A stretch of DNA of 64,000 nucleotides from an uncultured Akkermansia sp. (GCA_947624205.1 CANQJI010000001.1:11739-75738), one strand, 5' to 3'; positions 26,159 through 26,960 are shown, numbered from the stretch's first letter. Notes: a model not told the origin generated them from the letters alone. Translations and numbers: made by a program.

Positions 26159-26960
26159 ATTCAATACTGACCAGGGAAATCAGCATAGATGATAAGGGGC
26201 GATGGCAGATAACATCGTCATGGAGCGTTCTGGAGGACATACAAGCATGAGTTCTTCCTGCAGCGTGAACCCGGGAGCTTGGAGAGGCTATGAAGATGAC
26301 GGCAGAATGGCTGGAATACTTACAAACAAAGAACGGCCTTACTCCACGGGGCAAACGCATTAGGAAATGCGTTTGCCTATGTACGATTTACGATGGACGA
26401 TGTACGATTTGGGGAGTTCCCGCGCTTGCGCGCGAATTTTGCAGAGCAGATGCGAAGCGGAATTTTGAAAAATGCGCGGGGGTGATTAGAAAGCGGCGAT
26501 GGCAGACGGGGTCTTCCTATGTACGATGTACAACACGCACGACGGCGTAAGTGCGGATGGACAGCGCGTATGCGCTGCCCTGCAGGGGCGAACCGTCGAT
26601 GGGGCGGCGGCGAGTCAATTATCGATGTACGATTTGGAAAGTTCGGTGGCTACGCCGCGAATTTGGCGAACGAGAGGGCTGCTTTAGAATCATCAGCACG
26701 ATGACCGCTTGTCGTCATGATTCATGATGCGTATAAACGATCATACCGGGCAACAAGAGCCTTTTCTCTGATGATTAACTGCCTCAAATGCGTTTGCCCT
26801 GCCTTACTCCACTCGTTCCGCAGCGCCTACGCTACAAAATCGCGTCAAAAATGGATTGACATCCGAGGTGCCGGATGATATAGCAAAGATACACGCCTGA
26901 TGTACGCAAAAAAGGGGCTTAAATAAGCTTCCGGCGTGTCGAAAGATGGGCACCAGTTTA
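26159..26960 (+). mobile_element. IS3-family orfB 3' remnant plus right end, itself interrupted by MITE-like copy 5
   Basis: TTCAATACTGACCAGGGAAATCAGCA...ATGGAGCGTT.TGGAGGACATACAAGCATGAGTTCTTCCTGCAGCGTGAACCC matches 21938-22105 with deletions. The right end ...GGGGCTTAAATAAGCTTCC...GGGCACCAGTTTA is at 26960. Confidence 0.85.
26348..26800 (+). repeat. MITE-like element, copy 5 (longest, 453 bp), inserted into the IS remnant with a 12-bp target-site duplication
   Basis: GCCTTACTCCAC occurs at 26336-26347 and again at 26801-26812. The element starts GGGGCAAACGCATTAGGAAATGCGTTTGCC and ends CTCAAATGCGTTTGCCCT. Uninterrupted homologous sites are at about 25131-25160 and 28935-28960. Confidence 0.9.

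Follow-up and report, generated by a model that had tools for sequence, protein, structure and literature searches.

A non-autonomous MITE abundant in Akkermansia and inserted into an IS3-family orfB remnant, most likely mobilised by an ISAs1-family enzyme

Introduction

In a 64-kb stretch of DNA from an uncultured Akkermansia sp., the whole of which is called the window here, the 12-mer GCCTTACTCCAC is present at 26336-26347 and again at 26801-26812, and the DNA enclosed by the two copies starts with GGGGCAAACGCATT and ends with AAATGCGTTTGCCCT. A first interpretation, made without database searches and called the sequence-only reading below, took this DNA for a palindromic repeat element of 453 bp (26348-26800) that had inserted into the remnant of an IS, leaving a 12-bp target-site duplication (TSD), and proposed that the repeat family to which it belongs transposes or once did. 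The question raised by the locus is whether the repeat is a transposed element or a static sequence of the REP type and, in the former case, what kind of element it is and which enzyme would have moved it. A direct check of the sequence found all the strings quoted in that interpretation, each at its position, and we followed the locus up in the window and in 97 further Akkermansia loci.

Results

The sequence that received the insertion is, as the sequence-only reading had proposed, a 3′ remnant of an IS3-family orfB. Its left part (26200-26336, + strand) was recognised by alignment as a degenerate remnant of this kind, and its right part (26812-26961, + strand) is the remaining IS3 remnant up to the end of the IS (...CACCAGTTTAC). 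Four other remnants can be aligned with the host sequence, as can the 3′ end of the ORF at 21362-22375, which matches Pfam rve, rve_3 and HTH_21 (IS3-family orfB). At the exact spacing of the two 12-mers, only three 10-mers repeat in the 64-kb window, and all of them are overlapping parts of GCCTTACTCCAC.

An unoccupied version of the target is found in a second short-variant IS3 remnant of the window (25082-25300), where the paralogous empty target CCTTATTCCA lies at 25139-25148. This remnant reads AGAACGGCCTTATTCCACTCGCTCC at 25131-25155 (within 25125-25160), that is a single unbroken target with one mismatch. Empty junctions were also reconstructed and then searched against all loci, and the segment 25088-25296 of the window was found to span the junction reconstructed for this site. 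Since the empty paralogue has one copy of the target and the identity between the two flanks ends at the edges of the 12-mer, the 12-bp repeat is not part of a longer pre-existing duplication of the IS remnant, a possibility that the sequence-only reading had itself raised.

Two remnants had been proposed as empty sites. The one at 25131-25160 does hold a single unbroken target; the one at 28935-28960 lacks the target's left part. There the IS homology begins only at TACTCCAC, and the left third of the target is missing because a Rhs core fragment is fused on the left (GGCAACCAGATGCGC joined to TACTCCAC). The remnant at 28935 is a truncation junction and no clean empty site. Only 3 bp separate this Rhs/IS-remnant junction from the point at which the MITE entered the paralogous copy, and the surrounding region of Rhs and IS3-remnant sequences is highly rearranged and duplicated.

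The length of the duplication was set by a family-wide tabulation, in which left hairpins were paired with right ends in the window and in 97 Akkermansia loci, drawn from Akkermansia MAGs of several species, and the flanks of the resulting 61 non-redundant pairs were compared. Compared over the 10 nt situated 3 nt beyond the GGCAAACG core, the flanks agreed at all ten positions in 19 of the 61 pairs, at nine or more in 24 and at eight or more in 28, and at offsets 0-2 and 4-6 zero pairs reached 8/10. When flanks were paired across different loci as a control (several thousand pairings), 8/10 or better was reached in 0.17% and 10/10 never. Furthermore, an unbiased search for left-flank 10-mers that recur downstream gave 26 exact recurrences, and 20 of these 26 were placed directly after AATGCGTTTGCC-NNN. 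Between the core and the TSD, the left trinucleotide is CAG in 20 of 28 copies and the right one CTG in 15 of the same 28; the ends of the element are therefore CAGGGCAAACGCATT...AATGCGTTTGCCCTG and the TSD is 10 bp. The duplicated sequences differ from copy to copy and have no common core, which argues for a staggered cut of the transposase type and not for an att site. A TSD of fixed length and variable sequence, here 10 bp at a single offset, is what is looked for in a MITE. The duplications proved consistent across the genus, so that one outcome which the sequence-only reading had named as fatal to its claim, a lack of consistent flanking duplications, did not occur.

Two further features of the TSD-bearing insertions were observed. 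At least 8 of the 28 lie in or beside the family's own hairpins or ends, which may reflect a preference for such sites, and C follows the target in 16 of the 28, a bias that is asymmetric.

With offset and length set in this way, the two TSD copies at the studied locus are CCTTACTCCA at 26337-26346 and CCTTACTCCA at 26802-26811, 10 bp each, and the MITE copy between them spans 26347-26801 (+ strand) and measures 455 bp. The location and the inverted termini given by the sequence-only reading were thereby retained, and its bounds were moved one base outwards on each side. The 12-bp repeat that it had described also exists, but the TSD is shorter than the repeat and the outer bases are coincidental: the identity extends to 12 bp because the G that precedes the target matches the element's last base and the C that follows it matches the first.

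The element is bounded by 15-nt terminal inverted repeats (CGGGGCAAACGCATT / CAGGGCAAACGCATT), as a MITE should be. The left repeat (26347-26361, + strand) reads CGGGGCAAACGCATT, the family consensus being CAGGGCAAACGCATT, and agrees with the reverse complement of the right end, AATGCGTTTGCCCTG, at 14 of 15 positions; the termini of this copy are CGG...CTG. At the left end the core of the repeat is followed by its own inverted copy, and the two form a hairpin (26350-26377, + strand; GGCAAACGCATT-AGGA-AATGCGTTTGCC) with a perfect 12-bp stem in both the MFE and the centroid folds, whereas the right end has a single arm only. The hairpin is followed, as in nearly all copies, by a short run of TGTACGAT-type repeats (26378-26410, + strand). 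Optional internal modules, delimited by BLAST module by module, occupy 26411-26681 (+ strand); they are absent from the canonical 242-bp copies and in the studied copy make up about 270 bp between the constant left and right modules, in the form of a GC-hairpin module, a ACAACACGCACGACGG...GAGTCAA module and a second GC-hairpin module. The conserved right-end module (26682-26801, + strand) includes the right terminal repeat (26787-26801, AATGCGTTTGCCCTG).

All the ORFs wholly within the studied element are of 62 aa or less, none of them of the size of a transposase gene, and the element encodes no transposase. Its size, 455 bp here and 242 bp in the canonical form, is that of a MITE (below about 600 bp, with no transposase ORF). 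The right-end module was considered as a possible remnant of a transposase C-terminus, an idea that was dropped on inspection by eye given the very short ORF before the putative stop. Rfam at the gathering threshold and a tRNA scan gave no match in the whole window, and promoter and terminator scans of the region showed no excess over shuffled controls.

With one mismatch allowed, the window has 24 occurrences of the 12-nt core GGCAAACGCATT, where chance would give 0.42. These matches resolve into about 10 copies, six full and four fragments, corresponding to a density of about one copy per 6-7 kb. Besides the studied element, one full copy is an intact canonical one of 242 bp (8283-8524, + strand), flanked by the perfect TSD CAGTCCGGGA at 8273-8282 and 8525-8534. 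The others are a 317-bp copy with no recognisable TSD (7073-7389, + strand; 83% identical to 26511-26798) and three copies without TSD: one of 237 bp with degenerate ends (30157-30393, + strand), one of 248 bp with a degenerate left end (31706-31953, + strand) and one of 360 bp (49442-49801, + strand). These four TSD-less copies diverge by 15-25% from the studied one, which suggests that the activity of the family in this genome may be old. The fragments comprise a right-end fragment upstream of gdhA (12520-12725, − strand), a left-end fragment downstream of gdhA with the hairpin and the first part of an internal module (14547-14641, − strand), a left-end fragment with the hairpin, the TGTACGAT repeats and part of an internal module (52053-52230, + strand) and a solo degenerate hairpin (46004-46051, + strand).

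The window copies that were inspected are located between or beside genes. The gdhA gene together with the two end fragments that bracket it was considered as a composite transposon, and this candidate was dropped as no duplication flanks it. The same-species contigs that were retrieved are at least 99.3% identical to the window, collinear with it and all filled, and no exact match to the Pgk protein is on record. High-copy repeats are expected to break assemblies, and several short same-species contigs end at 12552-12554 or at 14499-14513, which are positions of copies.

Outside the window, a scan that took one genome for each species had more than 97 stretches with the hairpin among the matches listed, all of them from Akkermansia MAGs, and the terminal repeat did not occur in 80 metagenome contigs containing YchF, none of which is from Akkermansia (best hits 56-73% identical). 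A BLAST of the 453-bp element, as it had been reported, against all loci brought out the modular build of the family. Two modules are constant, the left one (hairpin plus TGTACGAT-type repeats) of about 63 bp and the right one of about 120 bp, and the commonest full element consists of these two joined, 242 bp with the termini. The canonical order is CAGGGCAAACGCATT, the inverted copy of the core 3-4 nt further on, the TGTACGAT-type repeats, the right module and AATGCGTTTGCCCTG. Some internal modules are tandemly repeated with a period of 87 bp (loci L004 and L042), and many hairpins are solitary and have no right-end module. Between orthologous copies, internal modules are gained or lost at the TGTACGAT repeats in a recombination-like manner. 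Literature searches on Akkermansia in combination with ISAs1, MITE or ISfinder, as well as on the core sequence, turned up no earlier description; the repeat family of Akkermansia is apparently undescribed, MITEs as a kind being well known.

The search with reconstructed empty junctions also yielded two orthologous filled/empty pairs between different MAGs, both of them precise insertions of 242 bp plus 10 bp. The filled locus L079 reads ...GAAGATG-TAGTAAACGC-(242 bp)-TAGTAAACGC-ATATGAAATG..., and its empty orthologue L038 reads ...GAGGATG-TAGTAAACGC-ATATGAAATG... In the other pair, L067 has GCAATACACC-(242 bp)-GCAATACACC and the empty L074 has one GCAATACACC. Together with the paralogous pair of the window (26337 versus 25139), these loci document dispersed copies with both filled and empty sites, a further mark of a MITE. 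Within a single MAG, CANRJD (Lapin-024__bin76), the copies at L003 and L051 are 99.6% identical over 242 bp at different sites and with different TSDs, and several other copies are 95-97% identical; the presence of near-identical copies at different sites therefore points to a recent burst of the family in CANRJD. The fixed 10-bp TSDs, the orthologous empty sites and the near-identical copies strongly support the proposal of the sequence-only reading that the family transposes or once did and is not a static repeat of the REP type.

As to the enzyme, the ISAs1 family is described as having inverted repeats of 14-22 bp that start with CAGGG and a 10-bp direct repeat, and its Frankia members likewise have a 10-bp direct repeat (PMC11946415). 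For ISArsp11, the inverted repeat is CAGGGCTGATGCAAAGTCG and the direct repeat is again of 10 bp (PMC6305408). Real ISAs1 ends were also read by means of a scan of viral contigs for ISAs1 transposases; the homologue present in the viral contig L275 is bounded by CAGGGCCGTTCAGCG..., and its direct repeat measures 9 bp. The E. coli H-rpt element (yhhI) has the right end CAGGGCAAGATTACG, in which 8 of the first 9 bases are those of the Akkermansia terminus. The features of ends and duplication by which the ISAs1 family is recognised are found in the Akkermansia family as well: the consensus CAGGGCAAACGCATT begins with CAGGG, the inverted repeat is 15 bp long (range 14-22) and the TSD 10 bp (range 8-10). 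Judged from this signature of ends and duplication alone, an ISAs1-family enzyme would most likely be the mobiliser.

The window itself has no plausible transposase for the repeat, in line with what had been said of it from the start: the search for an ISAs1 (DDE_Tnp_1-type) transposase by tblastn with E. coli YhhI produced no credible hit, either in the window or in the 97 Akkermansia loci, and the orfB that is present was identified by Pfam as that of an IS3 element. In the same DNA, pairs of terminal repeats more than 460 bp apart showed no credible duplication. We also listed the ORFs enclosed by inverted core pairs 0.9-3.5 kb apart and read those of the pairs 1.0-1.5 kb apart, which look like ordinary cellular genes lying between separate copies of the family, and not like transposases. 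The transposase gene bounded by the same termini, for which the sequence-only reading had proposed a search, did not come to light, and no autonomous partner with these ends was found, in about 0.8 Mb of Akkermansia DNA, a sample that consists of hairpin-selected MAG sequence, where MAG assemblies lose IS copies.

The IS3 element, the only IS of the window, was itself considered as mobiliser and rejected. The ends of the IS3 family are TG...CA and its duplications 3-4 bp long (ISfinder tables), a pattern at odds with the CAG...CTG ends and the 10-bp TSD of the repeat; the IS3 element is not the mobiliser because it belongs to a type with TG/CA ends and 3-4 bp duplications.

Discussion

We consider it very probable that the feature at 26347-26801 represents one member of an abundant non-autonomous MITE family of Akkermansia, most likely mobilised by an ISAs1-family transposase. 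A DDE transposase acting in trans would bind the terminal repeats, would cleave at the CAG/CTG ends and would integrate the element at cuts offset by 10 bp. On integration, 10 bp of target sequence, different from copy to copy, are directly duplicated; here the target is CCTTACTCCA in a dead IS3 orfB remnant, and a paralogous remnant keeps it unoccupied. As the insertion hit what was a pseudogene already, it was presumably neutral.

The MITE could have been moved by a different DDE family with a TSD of about 10 bp, whether an undescribed one or an IS4-family group such as IS231, ISH8 or IS4Sa. Some IS4-family groups have ends starting with CA and make duplications close to 10 bp in length (ISfinder tables), which the 10-bp TSD and the CA-starting end of the Akkermansia family would also fit, and the search of the sampled Akkermansia DNA found no ISAs1 transposase. 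We nevertheless regard this as unlikely, since the first 5-6 terminal bases, CAGGG(C), exactly match the documented hallmark of ISAs1 and the ends also match the ISAs1 ends read here, namely H-rpt CAGGGCAAG and L275 CAGGGCC, whereas ends of the IS4 type (CAT..., -AAT) fit no further than CA. In addition, no transposase of any family bounded by these ends came to light in the sample, and the ORFs inspected between repeat pairs are cellular-looking. Unlikely in our judgement, too, is that the family is more than a passive MITE, namely a two-tier self-targeting system in which new copies would go preferentially to the family's own hairpins and ends and the internal modules would be independently mobile units landing at the TGTACGAT repeats, or that an undescribed transposase family merely mimics ISAs1 ends.

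A palindromic and modular family as dense as this one (about 10 copies in 64 kb), with many lone hairpins that have no right-end module, would suit static repeats of the REP, BIME or REPIN type, or repeats moved by a RAYT or by IS200/IS605, the flanking repeat then being coincidental or pre-existing. Such an account is very hard to reconcile with 19 perfect and mutually different 10-bp TSDs at one offset, when control pairings gave none, or with the precise orthologous empty sites, and the single copy of the target in the empty paralogue means that there was no pre-existing duplication. Transposition by REP/RAYT and by IS200/IS605 leaves no target duplication, and for the full elements these mechanisms are excluded because they make none. 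The clear 10-bp TSDs likewise separate the family from REP and REPIN sequences, which are defined by having no TSD and by their association with a RAYT (Y1 transposase) gene. A PATE, which inserts without duplication on the 3′ side of a fixed tetra- or pentanucleotide and has subterminal hairpins, was considered as an IS200/IS605-derived candidate and rejected, as the 10 bases before the left end vary and a duplication is present. The REP-type reading of the full-length elements is effectively refuted, and we hold the alternative as a whole to be highly improbable. Recombination, by att-like site-specific integration or by ectopic gene conversion between IS remnants that copied an allele containing the repeat, seems the least probable explanation of all. 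The Rhs and IS3-remnant surroundings are indeed highly rearranged and duplicated and the internal modules clearly change by recombination-like gain and loss, but the duplicated targets are variable and share no core, which excludes an att site, and gene conversion may spread a filled allele and yet cannot create a 10-bp TSD at the exact ends; furthermore, the same geometry is found at 27 other unrelated loci.

As a MITE of probable ISAs1 type, the family is conceptually standard and mechanistically ordinary, and it opens no new mechanism. Its interest is practical, for the genomics of Akkermansia, a much-studied gut genus, and possibly for the making of genetic tools, of which the genus has few. 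The family shows recent activity in one lineage at least, from the rabbit gut, and varies between related genomes; it is a source of strain-level variation and a handle for strain typing, and it may have polar or regulatory effects on neighbouring genes. It also breaks short-read assemblies and is a source of assembly and annotation artefacts. Were the cognate transposase found, the defined 15-bp ends could make a native transposition tool.

Among known systems, the ISAs1 family (ISAs1, H-rpt/yhhI, IS1358, ISArsp11) shares with the Akkermansia element the CAGGG(C) start, an inverted repeat of about 15 bp and a 10-bp TSD. The Akkermansia element differs in measuring 242-455 bp and having no transposase gene, against 1.2-1.5 kb for ISAs1, and in having a left-end hairpin and modular internal repeats.

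A closer counterpart at the termini is a 255-bp MITE at 2406-2660 of a viral contig (L201; IMGVR_UViG_3300049640_000403), which has a perfect 10-bp duplication, GGAATAACAA, and a 15-nt terminal sequence identical to CAGGGCAAACGCATT. It is unlike the Akkermansia family in its own interior, which is AT-rich and unrelated, in an inverted repeat of about 22 bp, in having no left-end hairpin and in its different host. The scan of viral contigs for the terminal 15-mer gave 91 hits, with a real element in L201 only; all the others matched once, lacked an inverted partner and a duplication, and were taken as chance, and a scan of the viral contigs for the longer terminal repeat of L201 returned L201 itself only. 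The terminus and TSD of L201 therefore indicate that elements with this terminus and a 10-bp duplication exist outside Akkermansia.

Bacterial MITEs include the Correia elements of Neisseria, the RUP elements of Streptococcus pneumoniae and the IS231-derived MIC231 cassettes of Bacillus cereus. Like bacterial MITEs in general, the Akkermansia family is small, non-coding and present in high copy number, with terminal inverted repeats, a TSD of fixed length and presence/absence polymorphism. In Correia and RUP elements, however, the TSD is TA, compared with 10 bp in the Akkermansia family, and from Correia, RUP and MIC231 alike the family differs in terminal sequence, in host genus (Akkermansia, of the Verrucomicrobiota) and in the parent family that we infer. 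In its mosaic build, with constant ends, variable internal modules and dense palindromes, it resembles the BOX elements of S. pneumoniae and the BIME/REP sequences of E. coli; unlike BIME/REP sequences, which have no TSD and are linked to RAYT, the Akkermansia family has defined inverted termini and 10-bp TSDs.

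Possible target preference of the MITE family

The sequence context of insertion was read in the 28 MITE copies, among 61 paired ends, whose flanking repeats match at 8 or more of 10 positions. Position +1 past the right duplication is a C in 16 of the 28 copies and the second base is an A in 13, and no G bias was observed at the mirror position 5′ of the left duplication, which is occupied by G in 6/28 copies. The C bias 3′ of the target either marks a target preference that is asymmetric or arises artefactually from insertion beside CAG-like ends. The C at +1 past the target is also the reason why the duplication of the window copy (26347-26801), 10 bp in length, seemed to be 12 bp.

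At least 8 of the 28 duplication-bearing insertions lie within, or directly abut, another hairpin or terminal repeat of the family, in the Akkermansia MAG loci L003 (4990 and 2738), L005 (1781), L051 (3279), L067 (4272), L068 (3342), L079 (1559) and L086 (3903). Targets at family sequences include TCCAGGGCAA and AACCGCATTG, the latter inside a hairpin, and some targets carry CAGGGCAA immediately 3′. Such placement hints that the family targets itself or favours palindromic DNA, or merely that insertions are tolerated there.

Turnover of the internal modules

Orthologous MITE copies in different MAGs were found to differ by internal modules of about 190-350 bp, present in one copy and absent in the other, as in L026 (5150-5450) versus L094 (3590-3700), L077 (2420-2730) versus L001 (7040-7150) and L072 (2960-3470) versus L083 (5400-5550). 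The breakpoints of gain or loss fall in the TGTACGAT short repeats. Module turnover is therefore uncoupled from that of the element as a whole, and proceeds by recombination or conversion, or possibly through movement of the modules as nested mobile units. In some Akkermansia MAGs the module made of TGTACGAT plus a GC-hairpin forms tandem arrays, with a period of about 87 bp at L004 3155-3769 and about 122 bp at L042 2580-3120.

The Rhs and IS3-remnant region

The MITE under study lies in an Rhs/YD-repeat locus (17000-38600) with repeated Rhs core fragments at 17072-17775, 19941-20644, 28489-28916 and 35988-36333, and with small downstream ORFs that have no Pfam match. The locus holds one apparently intact IS3 orfB (21362-22375) and five copies of the IS3 3′ remnant, two of them long (22104-22460 and 37102-37413) and three shortened by a deletion of about 126 bp. 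As seen by comparing 28888-29093 with 26802-26961, an Rhs core fragment is joined to an IS3 remnant at 28932/28933, a junction placed 3 bp inside the 10-bp target that the MITE used in the paralogous remnant, and over the 158 bp to its right the sequence shares 97% identity with the DNA flanking the MITE on its right. That the breakpoints coincide may reflect a rearrangement set off at a MITE end, or chance, the probability of which is roughly 3%.

A 43-nt piece of the MITE internal module (26578-26620, CCCTGCAGGGGCGAACCGTCGATGGGGCGGCGGCGAGTCAATT) shows 67-79% identity to sequences in or beside Rhs fragments (28705-28747, 38335-38377 and 38422-38464; repeat family D19), a likeness that may be due to chance or to common GC-rich hairpin motifs.

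Family fragments around gdhA and effect on assemblies

The glutamate dehydrogenase gene gdhA (13020-14378) is bracketed by right-end and left-end fragments of the MITE family (12520-14641) in mutually consistent orientations, and the upstream fragment carries a TATAAT-containing module about 330 bp 5′ of the gdhA start. No duplication was found flanking the pair; a composite transposon was therefore rejected, and the fragments look like two independent decayed copies.

Comparison of the same-species short-read contigs L280-L289, from several samples, with 5704-18315 showed contig ends at 12552-12554 and 14499-14513, the positions of the MITE fragments. The MITE family thus breaks up assemblies.

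Similar elements in viral contigs

An unrelated viral contig (L201, IMGVR_UViG_3300049640_000403) contains at 2406-2660 an AT-rich MITE of 255 bp, whose inverted repeats span about 22 bp; a search of the viral-contig collection found no partner for it. It resembles the Akkermansia MITE in having the same 15-nt terminus and a perfect 10-bp duplication, here GGAATAACAA. In viral contigs L275 and L277, an ISAs1-family IS (1142-2594) carries its left end twice, at 1142 and, 226 bp further on, at 1368, and the outer copy pairs with the right end through the 9-bp direct repeat ACTTGCAGT; this doubled left end loosely recalls the extra terminal-repeat copy of the Akkermansia MITE.
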